A DNA stretch of 64,000 bases from Cyclobacteriaceae bacterium (GTDB lineage Bacteria; Bacteroidota; Bacteroidia; Cytophagales; Cyclobacteriaceae), in NCBI GenBank assembly GCA_019638395.1, contig JAHBTX010000004.1, positions 306,411-370,410 on the forward strand. Direction: 5' to 3'. Positions 2,802 to 9,645 of this stretch are shown here, in pieces. The notes under the pieces are model-generated. The model did no database searches, was not told where the DNA came from, and was given only the letters and a program-made list of their open reading frames with translations. The translations under genes were made by a program, and so were the position numbers. Positions within the stretch are counted from its first letter, which is position 1. Every line of letters begins with the position of its first letter.

Positions 2802-3785
2802 CTAAGCTAAAGGTGTAGCGTAACTCATTTTAGGAGTCTTCAACGCTTCGCGTACCCACTTGCCTCTCGCTTCTGCAATTCTGCGTACTTCCAACCGTTC
2901 TTTGTTGCATGGGCCATCGCCATTAATCACGCGTTTAAATTCTTCCCAGTCTGGTTCGGTGTATTGCCACTTGCCGTTTTCATTTTTCTTCAGACTCGGA
3001 TCGGGAATGGTAAAGCCCAGTTCCCAGATTTTAGGAACATACATATCTAAAAACTGGTTGCGCATTTCATCGTTGGTGCCCATCTTCACTTTCCAACGCA
3101 TCAATACTTCTGTATGTGCCGAAATCTTATCAGACGGCCCAAAGAAGTGCATCATAGGCGGCCACCAGCGGTTCAATGCTTCCTGAAACATTTGGCGTTG
3201 TTTCGCGGTACCGCTGGCTAAGTAAATAACACAATGATGGCCATACTTCAAGTGAAAAGATTCTTCGGCACAGATTCTTTCCAGTGCGCGGCAGTAGGGG
3301 CCGTAACTTCCTTTTGCATTCGCCAACTGATTCACAATGGCACCCGCATCTACCAGCCAGGAGATAAAACAGCAATCGGCCCACGTAAAGGTGGGATAGT
3401 TAAAAATGTTGGAGTACTTTGATTTGCCGTTGATCAGGTCATCAACCATTTGCTCGCGCGATTTGCCAAGTGTTTCGGCAGCACTATAGAGTAACTGCGC
3501 ATGACCAACTTCATCTTGCACTTTGGCCATTAACGACATTTTGCGTTTAAACCCCGGAGCGCGTGTAATCCAGGTGCCTTCGGGTAATGCACCAATTATT
3601 TCACTGTGCGCATGTTGTTCGATCATGCGGATGAGTTGCTTGCGGTAAAGCTGCGGCATCCAATCGGTAGGTTCAATTTTTTCGCCTCTTGCAATGCGGG
3701 CTTCGAATGCAGCCAACCGTATTGGATCTTCCTGCGCCAGACTATCAGTCTTTAGTCCTTCAAATGTATTTCCCCCTCCGTACAT
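2802..3785 (-). CDS. paaA: 1,2-phenylacetyl-CoA epoxidase catalytic subunit PaaA
   Basis: [35 protein letters not shown] di-iron ligands; likely start is the ATG at 3785 (MYGGG). Confidence 0.95.
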
Positions 3786-3880: not shown

Positions 3881-4465
3881 TTACTTTTTCAAGCCATTCA
3901 CCAGCATATCAGCCAGTTGCTGGCCTAAGTCCTGTGGCACAATTTTGCTGGAAGGGTCGTACCACATAGGCATCCAGTTGAGGGATGAAAACAACGTCAT
4001 TACCGCCAGTTTTTTATCGATGGAATCTTTGAACTCACCTTGTTTAGCACCGGCTTCAATAATGGACTTAAAGCGGTTTATGTAGTTGATGCGCAGTAAC
4101 AAAAAATCGCGCAAGTAAGGTTGGCTCAGGTGGCGATGTTCATTCATAAATACAGCCGAAGCCGTAAGGTCTTTAGCCATAACCTGTATGTGCCCGATGA
4201 TTCCGAGTTTCAGCTTTTCGGATGCCGTTACTTCTTTCTTTTCAACTTCGGCTAACGACTTACGAAACTCAGCAGCCATATCAAAACACAGGTGCTGTAG
4301 AATTTCTTCCTTCGATTTAATGTGCGAGTATAAACTGGCTGCTTCAATGCCCAGCTTCTGGGCAAGGTCGCGCATAGAAGATGCCGCATAACCTTTCTCC
4401 CGAAACAATTCGGCAGCGCTGCGGATTACTTGTTCTTTACGGGATAAATTGCCTAGTACTTCCAT
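3881..4465 (-). CDS. TetR/AcrR family regulator (PaaR-like)
   Basis: N-terminal HTH AAELFREKGYAASSMRDLAQKLGIEAASLYSH; directly upstream of paaA. Confidence 0.9.
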   Translation of the reverse strand: MEVLGNLSRKEQVIRSAAELFREKGYAASSMRDLAQKLGIEAASLYSHIKSKEEILQHLCFDMAAEFRKSLAEVEKKEVTASEKLKLGIIGHIQVMAKDLTASAVFMNEHRHLSQPYLRDFLLLRINYINRFKSIIEAGAKQGEFKDSIDKKLAVMTLFSSLNWMPMWYDPSSKIVPQDLGQQLADMLVNGLKK

Positions 4466-4529
4466 AGGTGGTAGAAATCACTGGCTAAGTTAATTAATTA
4501 AATTTGATTAAATTCATAACAGATAAAAA

Positions 4530-5027
4530 ATGAAATTCAACTCGGTTAAAGAGTATTTCTTAAGGCTAAACAATACCGGCTACCAACTGATGATGGTGCC
4601 CATGATCTTGTTTATCTATCATTATGCCAGCGTTTATGCATTTACAACTCGGGTATGGATAACCGATTTAGCGATTGTTCACTATTTATTAATTGGTGTG
4701 ATTACACTTTCGTTGATATCCCTAACGGTCGTTCATTTTTTTGTACGCTCGCGCGCGATAAAAATTTCCGTACAAACGGGACTTGGATTAAAACTTGAGC
4801 AGTTGGGAAGTGTGTTGATGCAACGGTTAATTGTACTTGCACTGATAACCCTGGCAATGCCAGTGGGATTGGTACTTACACATCACATCGGGTTTGCAAT
4901 TGGATTTGCTATGCTGTTAGTGTGGTTTTTTTTGCATTGGCCCACGCCCACTCAGGTTTGTAGTTTACTTAAACTGAAAGGTGATGAAAAGGAAATGGTA
5001 TTAAGTAAGGGGGAGGCGTTTAAATAA
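4530..5027 (+). CDS. Hypothetical multi-pass membrane protein
   Basis: About four hydrophobic segments; C-terminal WPT...LKL...E motif resembles that of 58186-58659. Confidence 0.75.
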   Translation: MKFNSVKEYFLRLNNTGYQLMMVPMILFIYHYASVYAFTTRVWITDLAIVHYLLIGVITLSLISLTVVHFFVRSRAIKISVQTGLGLKLEQLGSVLMQRLIVLALITLAMPVGLVLTHHIGFAIGFAMLLVWFFLHWPTPTQVCSLLKLKGDEKEMVLSKGEAFK

Positions 5028-5030
5028 ACC

Positions 5031-5285
5031 TTATTCTTCAGTTTTTTGTAAACTTCTTAATCGTTGATTCATTAAACCAAGCAGTGTAGTTGCACTACCA
5101 AACAGGATGATTGTTCGAACATAATGATCCCCTTTTACCAAAGATATGATAACTCCAATGACCACGCCTATTAATAAGTGGCCCAATAAGTCAGCAATTT
5201 TATTTTGTGAGAATTGAATTGCCCCGAAGTCATAATAGAATTTAAGAAGCTTTCTCATACTACAATATTTTAAGAAATTATTCAT
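5031..5285 (-). CDS. Small membrane protein, candidate immunity factor, downstream of the XRE gene
   Basis: AT-rich ORF with two hydrophobic segments including GVVIG; start may be the later ATG (MRKLL). Confidence 0.5.
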   Translation of the reverse strand: MNNFLKYCSMRKLLKFYYDFGAIQFSQNKIADLLGHLLIGVVIGVIISLVKGDHYVRTIILFGSATTLLGLMNQRLRSLQKTEE

Positions 5286-5352
5286 AGTAAATGTGGTTCT
5301 TTTTGGCCAGAACTCAAAAAATATTGATTACAAAATCGTGAGAAACTCCTTC

Positions 5353-5592
5353 TTATTTCTTTCTTAACTTCTGAGTTTGAAAATTGACAAGCTCTGGAAG
5401 TGTAATTTTTAACCCCATTGAAATAGATATAAGAACATCTATGGTTGCGCAGTATTTAGCGTTTTCAATACGCTGAATTGTGATTTTAGCTAAATCTGAT
5501 AAGTCAGCTAGTTCTTGCTGACTTAGTTTTTGAGCATCCCTCAACTGCCTTAGATGAGTTCCAAAAGCTTTAATGCCGGAGGGATTCTTCAC
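5353..5592 (-). CDS. XRE-family helix-turn-helix regulator
   Basis: LRQLRDAQKLSQQELADLSDLAKITIQRIENA is a typical Cro/C1 HTH. Confidence 0.9.
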   Translation of the reverse strand: MKNPSGIKAFGTHLRQLRDAQKLSQQELADLSDLAKITIQRIENAKYCATIDVLISISMGLKITLPELVNFQTQKLRKK

Positions 5593-5618
5593 AGAGCGAA
5601 AGTCGCTCAGTGAAAAAA

Positions 5619-5650
5619 TATTTTTGGATACACATGTGTATCCAAAAATA
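5619..5650. promoter_or_regulatory. Perfect 32-bp palindrome, putative XRE operator
   Basis: TATTTTTGGATACACA|TGTGTATCCAAAAATA, between the divergent XRE gene and precursor gene 1. Confidence 0.7.
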
Positions 5651-5657
5651 AAAATTA

Positions 5658-5665
5658 TATATTTG
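5658..5665 (+). promoter_or_regulatory. Bacteroidota -7 promoter element (TATATTTG) for the precursor operon
   Basis: Exact TAnnTTTG match immediately 3' of the palindrome. Confidence 0.6.
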
Positions 5666-5775
5666 AAAAGAAGGATATGTGCATACCAAGACTTCTAAAT
5701 ACTTTGATTGAGGATTCTTAGCAGATTGAAATAATAAATTCCAATTATAAATTTCTTAAACCTAAATCCAATTCT

Positions 5776-6126
5776 ATGAAAAGAAACAAACAGAGTATTA
5801 AAATACTAGCGTTAATGCTAGTTTTCACGTTTATGGTGGTAACATCCTTCAGAGTGAATGCTTCTTCAGCATTTGGCTCAACAAGCTCAAATGTCTATAA
5901 AACAACATCGAATGACAGCCAACAGATGAATGCGGTAGCTCCTAATGTCGTTGCAGCTGCATTAGTCGCGGGATTTGAAGTTGGAGTTGCTGTTGGTGCA
6001 GTTGTTGGTATAGTTTCGGGATTTGCATATCAAATGGTTACTAATTTTCTTCACGGTGTTGAGAGTATAGCATCTTTAGACTATTTGAATTATGATCCAA
6101 ATGATCTCTCAAAGTTTGATAATTAA
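5776..6126 (+). CDS. Secreted glycine-zipper peptide precursor 1 (putative SdpC/YitM-like toxin)
   Basis: Signal peptide ending RVNA; core GFEVGVAVGAVVGIVSG; tail LNYDPNDLSKFD; next to SdpA/SdpB-like genes. Confidence 0.7.
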   Translation: MKRNKQSIKILALMLVFTFMVVTSFRVNASSAFGSTSSNVYKTTSNDSQQMNAVAPNVVAAALVAGFEVGVAVGAVVGIVSGFAYQMVTNFLHGVESIASLDYLNYDPNDLSKFDN

Positions 6127-6150
6127 TAATTGACTAAACCCAAAAACAAA

Positions 6151-6480
6151 ATGAAAAATAGAAAAGTGTACTCTCTTTTGATTTTAGTTGCTATGTTAGG
6201 ATCAATAGCTATGCAGGCATCAGGAGCGTCAAGTGTTGGTTCTGTAGCGGTAAATAAGTACGATGTAAGTGCTGTTGGTACTATGAGTAAAGATGTTAAT
6301 CTCGCAGCAGCGGCAGCATTTGCTGTTGGATTTGTAACTGGACTGGCTGTTGGTGTAATTGAAGGATTTAATGTTGGAACTTACCTTGCTAATTTCTTAT
6401 ACGGTGGAGAACAATTAGCATCTTCTTTAGAGAATCTAGATTATTCTAAGAATGATCTCGCAAGATTTGATCCCAAGTAA
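6151..6480 (+). CDS. Secreted glycine-zipper peptide precursor 2, paralog of precursor 1
   Basis: Signal peptide; core GFVTGLAVGVIEGFNVG; tail LDYSKNDLARFD; ATG at 6151 preferred over TTG at 6130. Confidence 0.7.
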   Translation: MKNRKVYSLLILVAMLGSIAMQASGASSVGSVAVNKYDVSAVGTMSKDVNLAAAAAFAVGFVTGLAVGVIEGFNVGTYLANFLYGGEQLASSLENLDYSKNDLARFDPK

Positions 6481-7192
6481 TTTGACTGATCAAAAGCGAA
6501 GAGGTTCGAAATACGGTATTACCGTTTTTCGGGCTTCTTTGTATTTAGTAATTTTTCTTCATTTTTCAATTTTGACTTTGTATTTGGCTCCCTCTAATCC
6601 TGTAAACCACATTTTTAAAGTTGAGATAGGTTCTTATGTAAATCCTTTTTTTAGTCAAAATTGGAGCCTCTTTGCACCAGATCCTGTTTCAAGTAATCAG
6701 ACTTTACAAATTAAATTTATTGCTTTTAATAATGAGATCGAGAGTAAAACAGATTGGTTAGATTTAAAAGAGATGGTCCATGCAGAACGAGCCAAAAGCT
6801 TCTGGTCTCCGCTTCAAAGGTTAGAGAAATATCTTAGTGGTGTTACGCAATCTATTGTTACTGATCAAATCCACTTAAACAATTTCATAGAAACTCACTC
6901 AAACTTTAGCCAAGATTCTATAAGGGTGCTACAGGATTTATATAAAATGAATTATGGCCACAGAAGTCTTAAGTCTTATTCTCAAATCGTATTGTCAAAA
7001 TTAAACTTCGCCAAAGAATACGATAGCATAGCTGTAATGTATCGTATAGTTGATGCTAAGTTCCCACGTTTCTCCAAGCGCCATTTAGATTACCACGATT
7101 TGAATAACTATGAGATAACTTATTTTGAGTTAGACTTAGGGGTTATCAAATATAAAGATTTAGAAGATGACGGCCGAAGTTCAGAAAACTAA
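6452..7192 (+). CDS. DUF5819 / SdpA-like maturation protein
   Basis: N-terminal TM segment followed by YVNPFFSQNWSLFAPDP; precedes an HTTM gene; start may be the TTG at 6482. Confidence 0.75.
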   Translation: MISQDLIPSNLTDQKRRGSKYGITVFRASLYLVIFLHFSILTLYLAPSNPVNHIFKVEIGSYVNPFFSQNWSLFAPDPVSSNQTLQIKFIAFNNEIESKTDWLDLKEMVHAERAKSFWSPLQRLEKYLSGVTQSIVTDQIHLNNFIETHSNFSQDSIRVLQDLYKMNYGHRSLKSYSQIVLSKLNFAKEYDSIAVMYRIVDAKFPRFSKRHLDYHDLNNYEITYFELDLGVIKYKDLEDDGRSSEN

Positions 7193-8102
7193 CCAATTCA
7201 TCGGGCTATCAATTATCAGGTTCATTTTTGGCTTGATTATTTTAAAGAATATTATTTTTTATCTACCAACATCGGATTACTATTTCGGTAAAAACGGAAT
7301 TGTTCCTTGGGAGGATTTTCTGCTAATCTGCGGAACAATAAACATGTCGTTCATGACAATATTTTTTCAAAATGATTTAATGCTTAAAATTTACTTATTG
7401 TTGACAGTTGTGTTAGCATTTAATTTCTGTTTAGGAATAGGCTCAACCATAAATGGTGTAGCATTAACTATTTTTTTGTTTTTCTTAAAGTTAAGAAACG
7501 GATTAATACTTGATGGTTCTGACAATGTTATTTCAGTAGTATTGCCATTTTTAATATTTACCAATTGTTATCGTTTTTTCAATGTTCAATTGGCTTATGA
7601 TAAGTTGGAGCAAGTTTTGAGAAGTAAAGATTGGATGACAGTTGTGGACAGAGTATTTGTTTTAGCGATTAAAATTCAAGTGATCTTTGTCTATTTTTTT
7701 ACGGCTATTGCAAAATCTGGAGGAGTATTATGGCAAAATGGTACAGCTGTTTACTATACTATGCGCGTGAAGGAGTTTAATGCTACGTCATTGAATGTTC
7801 CCCTGACTCAGAATGTTTATTTTGTTGTATTTACAACTTATACTACTCAACTTATTGAAATAGCATTTGCCTTTTTAGTCTGGTTTAAAAAGACAAAATT
7901 CATAATTCTCACCATTACGGCATTATTACATGTTGGTATTTTTATCTTCATGAGAATTGATAACTTCTCTTGGGTGATGATAACCACGTATGCCGTGTTT
8001 ATAAATGATGATGAGTTTTTATCGATACATAAAGGCGTAAAACTAAGAATATCTTCTTTCTTACTCTGGAAGCAAAAAATATTAAACATAATCATCAAAT
8101 GA
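7167..8102 (+). CDS. HTTM-domain / SdpB-like membrane protein
   Basis: Multi-TM; DGSDN, YFFTAIAK..G.LWQNGTAVYYTM, LIEIAF and LHVGIFIFM.IDNFSWVM motifs. Confidence 0.8.
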   Translation: MTAEVQKTNQFIGLSIIRFIFGLIILKNIIFYLPTSDYYFGKNGIVPWEDFLLICGTINMSFMTIFFQNDLMLKIYLLLTVVLAFNFCLGIGSTINGVALTIFLFFLKLRNGLILDGSDNVISVVLPFLIFTNCYRFFNVQLAYDKLEQVLRSKDWMTVVDRVFVLAIKIQVIFVYFFTAIAKSGGVLWQNGTAVYYTMRVKEFNATSLNVPLTQNVYFVVFTTYTTQLIEIAFAFLVWFKKTKFIILTITALLHVGIFIFMRIDNFSWVMITTYAVFINDDEFLSIHKGVKLRISSFLLWKQKILNIIIK

Positions 8103-8617
8103 TTTCAATAAAGCGTCTATATGGACTAATAGTTATAGTTGCATTCTTCAATGTTGTTATTACTCGTTTTCTATGCTATTTAATAATCACAGATTATAAC
8201 GATTATTCAGCTATGGGAGAGTTCGCATTATTGAGTATCATCTTTTTTCCGGTTTGCTTAATGCTTAATACAGTAGGTTTACTTTACCTTATTCGTAATG
8301 AAGAAGTCGTGATAGATCGTAAGTTTAGGCCTGGTTTATTCTGGTTAATGGTGATCTGTTTTCTTATTTCATCTTGTGCTACATTCGGAATTGACTTTGT
8401 TTATGATCTAACTATTGAAAATAATGTATCAACATTCTTTGCTAATATGCTTTTAAACTCATTAAAAAATACTAATAGTGATGTTTCTGCTTTATTGCTG
8501 AGTACTCCATTTCTCCTTCAAAATTATATTTTTAATCTTTTCGCACTCTTATTAGCCTGGTTCATAACAGGAATGTATGTTAAGCGCATGCTGAGAAAGA
8601 GATTGACATCTGAGTAA
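8099..8617 (+). CDS. Multi-pass membrane protein, candidate immunity protein
   Basis: About four TM segments; ATGA overlap with the HTTM gene; last gene of the AT-rich island. Confidence 0.65.
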   Translation: MISIKRLYGLIVIVAFFNVVITRFLCYLIITDYNDYSAMGEFALLSIIFFPVCLMLNTVGLLYLIRNEEVVIDRKFRPGLFWLMVICFLISSCATFGIDFVYDLTIENNVSTFFANMLLNSLKNTNSDVSALLLSTPFLLQNYIFNLFALLLAWFITGMYVKRMLRKRLTSE

Positions 8618-8640
8618 GGTTTCTTGTAGAAAATACTAAT

Positions 8641-9645
8641 CTAGAAAGTTATTCCAAAACTAAACGCATTCAACTGCGGGCCTTTGTTTGCTACGAAGAG
8701 TTCGTTCAAATCGTAGTTGAAGAACAAATCAACATCATCAAAGCCAATTTGTGCGCGCAAACCGTAACGTAGGTTGTTCAGGTAAAAATTGTCGTGGTTG
8801 CGGGGTTTACGTTCAGCATCATTTTCTTTAAACACCTGTTTGCTGTAGCTGGCGATGCGGTAGCCCACATAAGGGCCAACACCTATGCGAAATGAATCGG
8901 CATTGTATCCATCAAAAAAACTAGGCTTATGTCGATTGCCTCCAAAGTCCAGCATAGGTACCAGCGATGCATTCAGGTACGTAGCCGTTAATTTACTTTT
9001 GATGAAATCTGCATCACGTGTGTCGGGCTGAAAGATTACACTATTATCATCTTTGCTCACCTGGGTTTGTGCATTTTGAAATTTGAAGTTATACCAGCTT
9101 GCGCCCAATGCCCACTCCATGTAAAACTTATTGGCGATGCGGGTACGTTGCACACTGTTAATACCCACGTACCACGATCCCCACGGTTTTACAGTGAACA
9201 AGCTATTATCCTGATCGGGGAAACCATTTTGGGTAATGTAGTTGTTGGTACCCAGATCGAAGTTCATAGAGTGATAGGTGCGTTTGCGAAACCTTTTGCT
9301 CTCTTTGTTATTGCTACTCCAATCTACACCCCAGTCTTCCTCTTTTTCGGCATCAACAGTTTCTTTGGCATCGGCAAGCCGAGCTGAATCTGTTTTTAAA
9401 TAGTCGATGGCTGCTTTTTGATGGCTGGTCGTATCTTCTTTTTCCAACTTGGCTATTAAATCTGCAATCAATTTCTGAAAATCATATTGTTTCATAGTCT
9501 CCAGATCTTTCTTGTCTTGCACGGCCAGAATCAGTTTACTGCCATTTCCTACTTTAATTACAACAGTATCGGCTGGTTTGGTTTGACTAAATCCAACCAC
9601 ACTTATCAAGGCAACCAAACAGGTCGTTATCATCTTACGCTTCAT
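8641..9645 (-). CDS. Outer-membrane beta-barrel domain protein
   Basis: Signal peptide, alternating beta-strand pattern, C-terminal FSFGITF. Confidence 0.75.
   Translation of the reverse strand: MKRKMITTCLVALISVVGFSQTKPADTVVIKVGNGSKLILAVQDKKDLETMKQYDFQKLIADLIAKLEKEDTTSHQKAAIDYLKTDSARLADAKETVDAEKEEDWGVDWSSNNKESKRFRKRTYHSMNFDLGTNNYITQNGFPDQDNSLFTVKPWGSWYVGINSVQRTRIANKFYMEWALGASWYNFKFQNAQTQVSKDDNSVIFQPDTRDADFIKSKLTATYLNASLVPMLDFGGNRHKPSFFDGYNADSFRIGVGPYVGYRIASYSKQVFKENDAERKPRNHDNFYLNNLRYGLRAQIGFDDVDLFFNYDLNELFVANKGPQLNAFSFGITF

Follow-up and report, generated by a model that had tools for sequence, protein, structure and literature searches.

A conserved C-terminal Phe-Asp tail on small paired precursors encoded next to DUF5819 and HTTM genes, and its plausible role as a docking tag

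Through analysis of a 64,000-nucleotide stretch of a Cyclobacteriaceae bacterium genome (GenBank assembly GCA_019638395.1, contig JAHBTX010000004.1, positions 306,411 to 370,410; hereafter the window), an operon has been identified in which two small precursor genes, A and B, are followed by genes for a DUF5819 protein and an HTTM membrane protein, and in which both precursors end in the same short acidic tail. The tail is the most conserved element of a family of about 100 sequence clusters, with members of about 110 amino acids, which is uncatalogued, being absent from Pfam and NCBIfam, and which probably encodes two-peptide membrane toxins in Bacteroidota. The observation of the tail is real and has been strongly extended beyond the window, and its interpretation is plausible: on balance, the tail would be a docking tag for a periplasm-facing complex of the DUF5819 and HTTM proteins, probably removed afterwards, as in SdpC.

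The elements on which this reading depends are listed below, with positions counted from the first nucleotide of the window.

5776-6126, + strand: precursor A, 116 amino acids; an open reading frame (ORF) and the top match of the family profile.
5776-5877, + strand: putative Sec signal of A (residues 1-34), with the near-invariant G34 as its last residue; a K/R-bearing N-terminus is followed by a hydrophobic helix.
5941-6054, + strand: residues 56-93 of A, a Gly-zipper hydrophobic helix and presumably the active core; helical in the AlphaFold2 model, with G74 and G78 conserved.
6076-6123, + strand: tail of A, residues 101-116, LDYLNYDPNDLSKFDN; translation checked.
6091-6120, + strand: core motif of the A tail, Y106-D115, with the most conserved columns of the family.
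6151-6480, + strand: precursor B, 109 amino acids from ATG; BLASTP against A, and match of the family profile (P0013, E 2.4e-24).
6424-6477, + strand: tail of B, residues 92-109, SLENLDYSKNDLARFDPK; translation and alignment checked.
6442-6471, + strand: core motif of the B tail, Y98-D107, placed by alignment.
6452-7192, + strand: DUF5819 protein with an N-terminal transmembrane helix and an extracytoplasmic domain; Pfam PF19136, 68.9 bits (cut-off 27.1).
7167-8102, + strand: HTTM membrane protein, related to the core of the vitamin K-dependent carboxylase; Pfam PF05090, 31.5 bits (cut-off 27.7).
7713-7715, + strand: codon for Lys183, the invariant HTTM residue that the alignment pairs with K218 of human GGCX.

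For B, the ATG at 6151 is the most likely start, rather than the TTG at 6130, given a family consensus with MK at its N-terminus and a database copy (P0013) of 109 residues.

The two precursors end in YDPNDLSKFD-N (A) and YSKNDLARFD-PK (B). The shared tail, already pointed out in an initial annotation made from the sequence alone, is present in both, is unique to them in the host genome and is conserved across 98 family representatives. Among 5709 six-frame ORFs of at least 80 amino acids in the host genome (4.78 Mb), the motif Y...[DN][FL][STAE].[FY]D.{0,8}$ occurs in two, solely A and B, and even [FY]D by itself is seen among the final eight residues of only 2.0% of these ORFs. The same annotation had held the signal and pro regions of the two precursors to be unrelated, which is contradicted by BLASTP: the alignment runs over the whole length of both (residues 9-115 of A, residues 5-107 of B; 32% identity, E 4e-11), and as judged by it A and B are full-length paralogs.

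The family has been collected at E <= 1e-3 from 1.84 billion representative proteins, using a profile built on seven precursors. The search gave 99 matches, 98 of which are proteins of 85-146 amino acids aligned over their full length to the C-terminus; their mean column identity is only about 24%. The information content of each column, computed on this 98-member alignment and numbered as in A, is as follows.

F114: 4.56 bits, Phe in 96/98.
D115: 4.06 bits, Asp in 96/98.
Position 111: 3.93 bits, 86 Phe and 10 Leu of 98.
G74: 3.74 bits, 97/98.
G34: 3.67 bits, 96/98.
Y106: 3.57 bits.
G78: 3.54 bits, 94/98.
D110: 3.10 bits.
S112: 2.68 bits.
Linker positions 86-105: less than 0.9 bits.

Apart from the start Met, no column is more conserved than F114, D115 and position 111. 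The tail consensus, which occupies the C-terminal 10-16 residues, reads Y-x3-[D/N]-[F/L]-[S/T]-x-F-D, followed by 0-6 residues and by exactly one in 65 of the 98 members; the net charge of the tail has a median of -3, and two members end in F-N in place of F-D. As an ascertainment control, the profile and the targets were both cut before the tail and rescored at library size with E <= 1e-3. A total of 36 members pass this rescoring and all 36 carry the tail, so its conservation is not a selection artefact. The question raised with the first description of the tail, whether homologous precursors keep it, is thereby answered positively, both for the 98 clusters and for every member found without its help. 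Neither A nor B, nor any of 97 family members, matched a Pfam or NCBIfam model, and a literature search found no paper on the precursor family or its tail. In a word-indexed protein search, precursor A alone matched only itself and the 97-member alignment matched only four proteins, probably owing to low-complexity words that saturate the prefilter.

The precursors consist of four parts: (i) a signal peptide; (ii) a variable polar spacer; (iii) a long Ala/Gly/Val-rich Gly-zipper helix; (iv) a variable linker with the acidic tail. The AlphaFold2 model of A, built from 97 sequences, has a helix at residues 5-27, a disordered section at 28-55 and one continuous helix at 56-93, behind which the tail forms an exposed coil with two short helical turns and a predicted local distance difference test (pLDDT) score of 76-80. 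The region following the core is acidic, with a mean of 5.8 Asp and Glu versus 2.4 Lys and Arg. A single Glu in each zipper had been offered as a speculative modification site; it is not a family feature, as the column of E68 holds Ala, Gly or Val in most of the 98 members, and only the column that matches IEGFN of B is often acidic, with Asp in 29 of 98. To judge from these columns, modification of the zipper Glu is not supported by conservation. A second conserved motif, [A/S]-[V/I/F]-G-[S/A]-[Y/F], lies past the hydrophobic region of the signal peptide, at residues 31-37 of A (5866-5886) and in the matching part of B, with G34 in 96/98 and Tyr or Phe two residues on in 71/98. It is probably the signal peptidase site, with Ala or Ser at -3 and Gly at -1, yet it is unusually conserved for one.

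The tail is present on divergent cores: alpha-like, beta-like, that of the third ORF of locus L041, and that of the Bacillales cargos. Tails of precursors from the same locus are more alike (0.545) than tails of different loci (0.39-0.41; permutation p = 0.001). No strong claim is made for ancient alpha and beta subtypes, or for a tail-specific concerted evolution beyond the permutation result, the core differences being small (0.27-0.31). In L041, a locus of a metagenome-assembled genome (MAG), there are three tail-bearing ORFs (3096-3449, 4001-4360 and 4377-4724) with the ends SMDFTSFDN, STDFSKFDI and SMDFESFDI; the core of the first is quite different, so that the tail behaves as a portable module.

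The linkage of the tail to the DUF5819 and HTTM genes has been followed from both sides, and the precursor genes are mostly tandem pairs directly upstream of this gene pair. Loci first reached via DUF5819, without regard to the tail, namely those of Rhodonellum psychrophilum (L006/L010), of a Cyclobacteriaceae MAG (L009) and of the metagenome contigs L013/L014 and L016, each have a tandem pair of precursors that end alike, and all 10 precursors of five close Bacteroidota loci found in this way bear the tail. Among Bacillales, six of the eight secreted ORFs upstream of DUF5819 end in F-D (AELAFD, VVFDR, ESFD, ESFDLQ, ESFDN, QVFDQ); the exceptions are both G772 copies, with the ends AFRR and KFGR. 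Two cargos of Eremiobacterota end in L-D (SLDH, QLDQ). For the close Bacteroidota and Bacillales taken together, with four distant Bacteroidota loci (L007, L008, L032, L033) left out, [FY]D is found in 16 of 18 cargos reached via DUF5819, against a background of 2% (P about 1e-25).

Starting from the precursors, DUF5819 lies downstream in five of the six decidable contigs (G528, L034, L035, L041, L037). G528 (L029), to which the precursor profile led in a scan of 401 sampled Bacteroidota genomes, has the precursor pair first, then DUF5819 and HTTM, then genes for two membrane proteins and finally one of the DCC1-like type. The precursors P0097 (L034), P0028 (L035) and P0049 (L041) stand upstream of DUF5819 and HTTM, and in L035 the HTTM domain is fused to DCC1. 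P0100 (L037), of the Bacillota type, stands upstream of DUF5819, which is followed by two short ORFs without a Pfam match, with no HTTM called. The locus of P0077 (L038) is ended by the contig edge.

The HTTM protein has been compared with known structures. A profile of nine HTTM orthologs matched only GGCX chains in the PDB (E 2.5e-5), and a phmmer search with the single HTTM protein against the PDB found nothing. K183, in the context AIAK-SGGVLWQNGTAVYY, is invariant in the ortholog alignment and is aligned with K218 of GGCX, the second Lys of ...GVKKLD.... In GGCX, K218 serves as the catalytic base, taking a proton from vitamin K hydroquinone, and substrates are held via a propeptide whose Phe inserts in a pocket of the lumenal exosite (PMC12589487). 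The Glu-pocket residues N159/H160 of GGCX are not kept, the family having LDGSDN at this place of an approximate alignment. The kinship of the HTTM protein to the vitamin K-dependent gamma-carboxylase, which the initial annotation had stated, is borne out by the PF05090 score above its cut-off, by the profile matches and by the retained Lys. To judge from these sequence comparisons, DUF5819 and HTTM together form a bacterial relative, divided over two genes, of the vitamin K-dependent carboxylase, in which DUF5819 would be the small subunit of a split enzyme.

The AlphaFold2 model of the DUF5819 protein (pLDDT 79) shows a transmembrane helix at residues 12-45, preceded by a K/R-rich N-terminus, then helices and a four-stranded sheet. 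Its most conserved stretch, residues 66-78 (6647-6685), FFSQNWSLFAPDP, has F67, Q69, W71, F74, P76 and P78 invariant in 18 sequences and a pLDDT below 50 in the monomer model, which is consistent with a loop that is ordered only against the HTTM partner. In an AlphaFold3 model from a preprint, DUF5819 takes the position of the GGCX clamp, with Leu59/Phe60 at the vitamin K pocket (bioRxiv 10.64898/2026.08.19.745780). L73/F74 of the DUF5819 protein in the window, within the most conserved loop FSQNWSLFAPDP, correspond to these residues by position. A conserved basic patch, FPRFSKR (residues 204-210), could, speculatively, complement the acidic tail.

A recognition role is the most economical explanation of the tail, since the motif comprises several residues, is portable over unrelated cores and phyla, is tied to the sole gene pair common to the loci, and is shared in its variants by precursors of one locus. 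As a docking tag, the tail would act in a sequential order. The precursor would be exported by Sec and cut by signal peptidase near the conserved G34, and its acidic C-terminal region would, by its charge, stay periplasmic. Retention of the C-terminus in the cytoplasm is argued against by the acidic region behind the core together with the positive-inside rule, and a periplasmic C-terminus would fit access to the periplasmic DUF5819 domain. The tail would dock on the DUF5819-HTTM complex through the aromatic anchors Y106, F/L111 and F114, flanked by Asp, as conservation and linkage suggest; such docking would be akin to that of the GGCX substrate propeptide, but at the C-terminus. The complex would then act on the tethered precursor, after which removal of the acidic tail may yield a membrane-active peptide made of the hydrophobic helix or helices, by analogy with the conversion of SdpC to SDP, while the downstream membrane protein would protect the producer. 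As in follower-directed ribosomally synthesised and post-translationally modified peptides, a conserved sequence lies C-terminal to a more variable core and is genomically linked to an enzyme. The label follower, in the sense of a removed part, is taken solely from the likeness to SdpC and from the consideration that insertion into the membrane should be harder with an acidic cap.

Several observations weigh against this reading or narrow it. The distant loci L008, L032 and L033 hold DUF5819 and HTTM without an adjacent tail-bearing ORF, and the cargos at L007 (distant Bacteroidota), L051 and L053 end differently. The tag belongs to a large clade of DUF5819 and HTTM systems and not to all of them, given that the four distant Bacteroidota loci do not fit. 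At L040 a tail-bearing pair (P0109, 1359-2164) has genes for a MatE transporter and a Y1 transposase behind it, and no DUF5819 or HTTM gene is present on the 5-kb contig (within 2.9 kb), which makes it the sole decidable exception to the linkage. The operon in the window holds no protease gene. By a crude scale the hydrophobicity of the core helix is only marginal, and its topology is uncertain. Core similarity, like that of the tails, is slightly higher within a locus (0.31 vs 0.27), and part of the within-locus tail effect may reflect shared history. Finally, a Foldseek search of the PDB with the DUF5819 monomer model found no GGCX chain and nothing better than E 0.5, a weak test for a single chain against a 758-residue target. 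As nothing significant was found there, the clamp analogy rests on the preprint; a GGCX clamp-like fold or a fold like that of the major histocompatibility complex (MHC) is not claimed for DUF5819, the top Foldseek matches (ribosomal, MHC-like) having a probability <= 0.2 and a TM score <= 0.19.

The strongest alternative, although an unlikely one, is that the invariant Asp after Phe is itself modified, for example carboxylated, by the carboxylase-like enzyme, and that the modified tail stays in place, the Y...DFS part serving only to position the Asp. D115 always follows an aromatic or hydrophobic residue, the F-D of Bacillales and the L-D of Eremiobacterota included, the distance of this pair to the C-terminus is constrained, and the HTTM protein retains the catalytic Lys. 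Both carboxylases of the HTTM family that have been characterised have an acidic side chain as their target, Glu in the case of GGCX and Asp in that of MloH (PMC12186529; bioRxiv 10.64898/2026.08.19.745780). The two members with F-N, the two Bacillales cargos with F-R or F-G, and the loss of the GGCX Glu-pocket residues in the approximate alignment tell against modification of the Asp. The mass of SDP, which is not known to call for any modification beyond a disulfide, counts against it as well. So does the fact that SDP is an internal SdpC fragment, C141-S182 (PMC6818787). A further step, to be taken only tentatively and with a similarly small chance of being right, would make the tail-bearing precursors the first ribosomal protein substrates to be identified for a bacterial homologue of the vitamin K-dependent carboxylase: with menaquinol and O2, the split DUF5819-HTTM enzyme would bring about deprotonation and carboxylation, or another change, of the invariant Asp of the tag in the periplasm, licensing the maturation of a two-peptide toxin. 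The docking and Asp-modification models are not mutually exclusive.

It is rather improbable that the tail works independently of the enzymes, whether as an acidic cap for solubility or auto-inhibition, as a determinant of topology by which the C-terminus is kept from the cytoplasm, or as a contact to the partner peptide or immunity protein, its linkage to them being operon inheritance. Such a role would agree with an acidic tail behind a hydrophobic helix and with the pair at L040 that lacks adjacent DUF5819 and HTTM genes, and the tail variants shared within a locus fit contacts between peptides or with an immunity protein too. Charge or solubility, however, needs no invariant Phe-Asp with Tyr, Phe and Ser at fixed spacing; moreover, the ending recurs on unrelated cores in three phyla with DUF5819 and HTTM as the only common neighbours, whereas the accessory membrane proteins vary by phylum, for example with a transglutaminase-like protein in Bacillales.

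Very unlikely is a tail that signals to another machine, such as a C-terminal processing protease, an outer-membrane export system or a sortase-like enzyme, with the HTTM pair doing something else. The motif does stand at the extreme C-terminus, like many sorting and degradation tags, and a host protease must act on the tail, if it is removed, as the operon has none. Known sorting signals, however, have the order motif, transmembrane helix and basic residues, and here a helix precedes an acidic tail; the ending is found in diderm Bacteroidota and monoderm Bacillales, which have no common export machinery of such kind, and no matching machinery is conserved in the examined loci. That the shared tail is a mere residue of a recent tandem duplication without special function, as the full-length paralogy of A and B might suggest, is refuted already by its conservation over 98 clusters of low identity and in other phyla, next to an unconserved linker and spacer, and by the tail-less rescoring.

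Known C-terminal signals have also been considered as identities of the tail and rejected: (i) that of type I secretion, as the signals of the precursors are of the Sec type and an ATP-binding cassette (ABC) transporter, a membrane fusion protein and an outer membrane protein are all missing; (ii) the LPXTG, PEP-CTERM and GlyGly-CTERM sorting signals, as the order of motif and helix is wrong and a basic end is missing; (iii) the C-terminal domain of type IX secretion, as the tail is far too short.

With the docking reading retained as the favoured one, the locus can be compared to described systems. It works like sdpABC/yitPOM of B. subtilis, which produce the SDP and YIT toxins, but is not a member of that group. 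Common to both are a Sec-exported precursor with a C-terminal hydrophobic domain, an HTTM-family polytopic protein with a small partner (required for maturation there) and a membrane immunity protein (a candidate one here). In contrast to SdpC, the precursors described here are about half as large, usually paired, encoded upstream of the enzymes and unrelated in sequence. The SdpC model TIGR04032 matched neither precursor nor anything in the whole host genome, and does match in the B. subtilis control. The HTTM protein scored 43.6 bits against TIGR04033 (SdpB), below the 178.4-bit cut-off, which indicates a relation at superfamily level only. The sole Pfam match of the small partner is DUF5819, and with no NCBIfam match it is not assigned to the SdpA family; conversely, PF19136 has no match in the B. 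subtilis control genome. An SdpI-type immunity protein has not been recognised, the membrane protein at 8099-8617 having no Pfam or NCBIfam match beyond noise. Of the earlier proposal that the tail is the recognition or cleavage signal of an SdpA/SdpB-like pair, a recognition role is supported as the most economical reading, the tail being the most conserved element and linked to DUF5819 and HTTM in Bacteroidota, Bacillales and Eremiobacterota, and membership of the HTTM superfamily is supported too; the assignment to SdpA/SdpB is not, with the SdpB cut-off missed, a partner that is DUF5819 and not SdpA, and precursors that are not SdpC. We know of no conserved Phe-Asp tail reported for SdpC or YitM, and to our knowledge SdpC has no Phe-Asp ending. 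SDP itself comprises residues C141-S182 of the 203-residue SdpC, from which a 21-residue C-terminal tail is removed (PMC6818787).

GGCX shares with the HTTM protein the membrane core and the catalytic Lys. There are three differences: substrates of GGCX carry the docking peptide at the N-terminus, whereas the putative docking tail is C-terminal; GGCX contains its own lumenal binding domain, for which the separate DUF5819 protein would stand in here; and the Glu-pocket residues are not kept in this HTTM family. Another described relative is the DUF5819 and HTTM(-DCC1) pair of Melghirimyces thermohalophilus, of the same two families and with adjacent genes, which has been modelled as a split carboxylase (bioRxiv 10.64898/2026.08.19.745780). 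The preprint names no substrate, whereas the tail-bearing precursors are the candidate substrate in the window and its relatives; furthermore, the HTTM gene of the window has no DCC1 fusion. MloH of malonomycin biosynthesis, a fused HTTM/DUF5819-like bacterial carboxylase of the same superfamily, acts on Asp (PMC12186529), the residue that is invariant in the tail, but it is a single protein and its substrate is a polyketide synthase-nonribosomal peptide synthetase intermediate, not a ribosomal protein. Linaridin clusters (LinG/CrdG) are ribosomal peptide clusters with an HTTM-domain membrane protein (PMC9927463); their precursors differ by N-terminal leaders, Thr-rich cores, the lack of a Sec signal and of a Phe-Asp tail, and they have other partner enzymes. 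Class IIb bacteriocins resemble the system in two small tandem genes, hydrophobic GxxxG-type helices and a membrane immunity gene. In contrast, they use double-glycine leaders and ABC/C39 exporters, without an HTTM enzyme or a C-terminal tail, and the precursors here have Sec-type N-termini (a K/R-rich n-region with a hydrophobic helix) in an operon without an ABC/C39 gene.

The remaining features of the locus in the window are the following.

5353-5592, - strand: divergent XRE-type helix-turn-helix (HTH) regulator; Pfam HTH_3, E 2e-12.
5619-5650: perfect 32-nucleotide palindrome between the XRE gene and precursor A, a candidate operator; two 16-nucleotide arms, 100% complementary, without spacer, TATTTTTGGATACACA/TGTGTATCCAAAAATA.
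8099-8617, + strand: 172-residue polytopic membrane protein, translationally coupled, a candidate immunity or accessory protein; its ORF overlaps the HTTM stop.

The genes are closely packed, and that of DUF5819 overlaps B by 29 nucleotides and the HTTM gene by 26. The divergent HTH gene is also kept at the related loci L013/L014 and L016 and on one further related contig. The protein at 8099-8617 gave no Pfam or NCBIfam match at E <= 0.1 beyond one noise match, and a membrane protein of 166-180 residues is likewise encoded 3' of the HTTM gene in L010, L015, L029, L034, L035 and L041. The operon lies in an AT-rich island, with a GC content of 31-36% over about 4500-9000 and 41-46% in the flanks. 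DUF5819 has been found in four of 201 sampled genomes of the family and the precursors in two of the 401 sampled Bacteroidota genomes; the sampled genomes of the same genus contained neither a DUF5819 gene nor a precursor. The AT-rich island and the sparse distribution in relatives suggest that the operon was acquired horizontally.

Further genes accompany the related loci. A DCC1-like gene or fusion (CxxC thiol-disulfide oxidoreductase, PF04134) occurs at many DUF5819 and HTTM loci, and its copies are located as follows.

L029 (G528): 2004-2396.
L035: 1500-2741.
L041: 7555-7971.
L011: 6833-7270.
L012: 2102-2620.
One further related contig also carries a copy.

The DCC1-like protein is possibly a quinone or epoxide recycling partner; the only DCC1-like gene of the host genome is on another contig (C1:843354-843683). 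In Bacillota-type loci, the DUF5819/HTTM genes are followed by a membrane protein with a transglutaminase core of papain-like fold (L011, 5637-6800; L037, 2372-3616), a candidate protease for leader or tail removal; this gene is missing from the Bacteroidota loci. An ABC-transporter ATPase, a permease and a LytTR response regulator lie 3' of the operon in relatives (L015, 2298-3855 and 4331-4812; L034, 8113-8360), and such genes are typical of bacteriocin immunity and regulation loci.

The bacterial HTTM proteins (SdpB, YitO, LinG and the pairs with DUF5819) are kin to the human vitamin K-dependent carboxylase. A near-invariant C-terminal tag on the neighbouring cargo in three phyla provides a concrete, mutable handle on their substrates and chemistry. 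The tag predicts which residues should be mutated (F114, D115 and Y106 of the precursor, K183 of the enzyme) and where mass spectrometry should look, and it is a search motif for cargo genes in genomes. The question of which targets the bacterial carboxylase homologues have thereby becomes directly testable, and if the Asp-carboxylation reading were true, the same logic would account for the role of SdpAB-type proteins.

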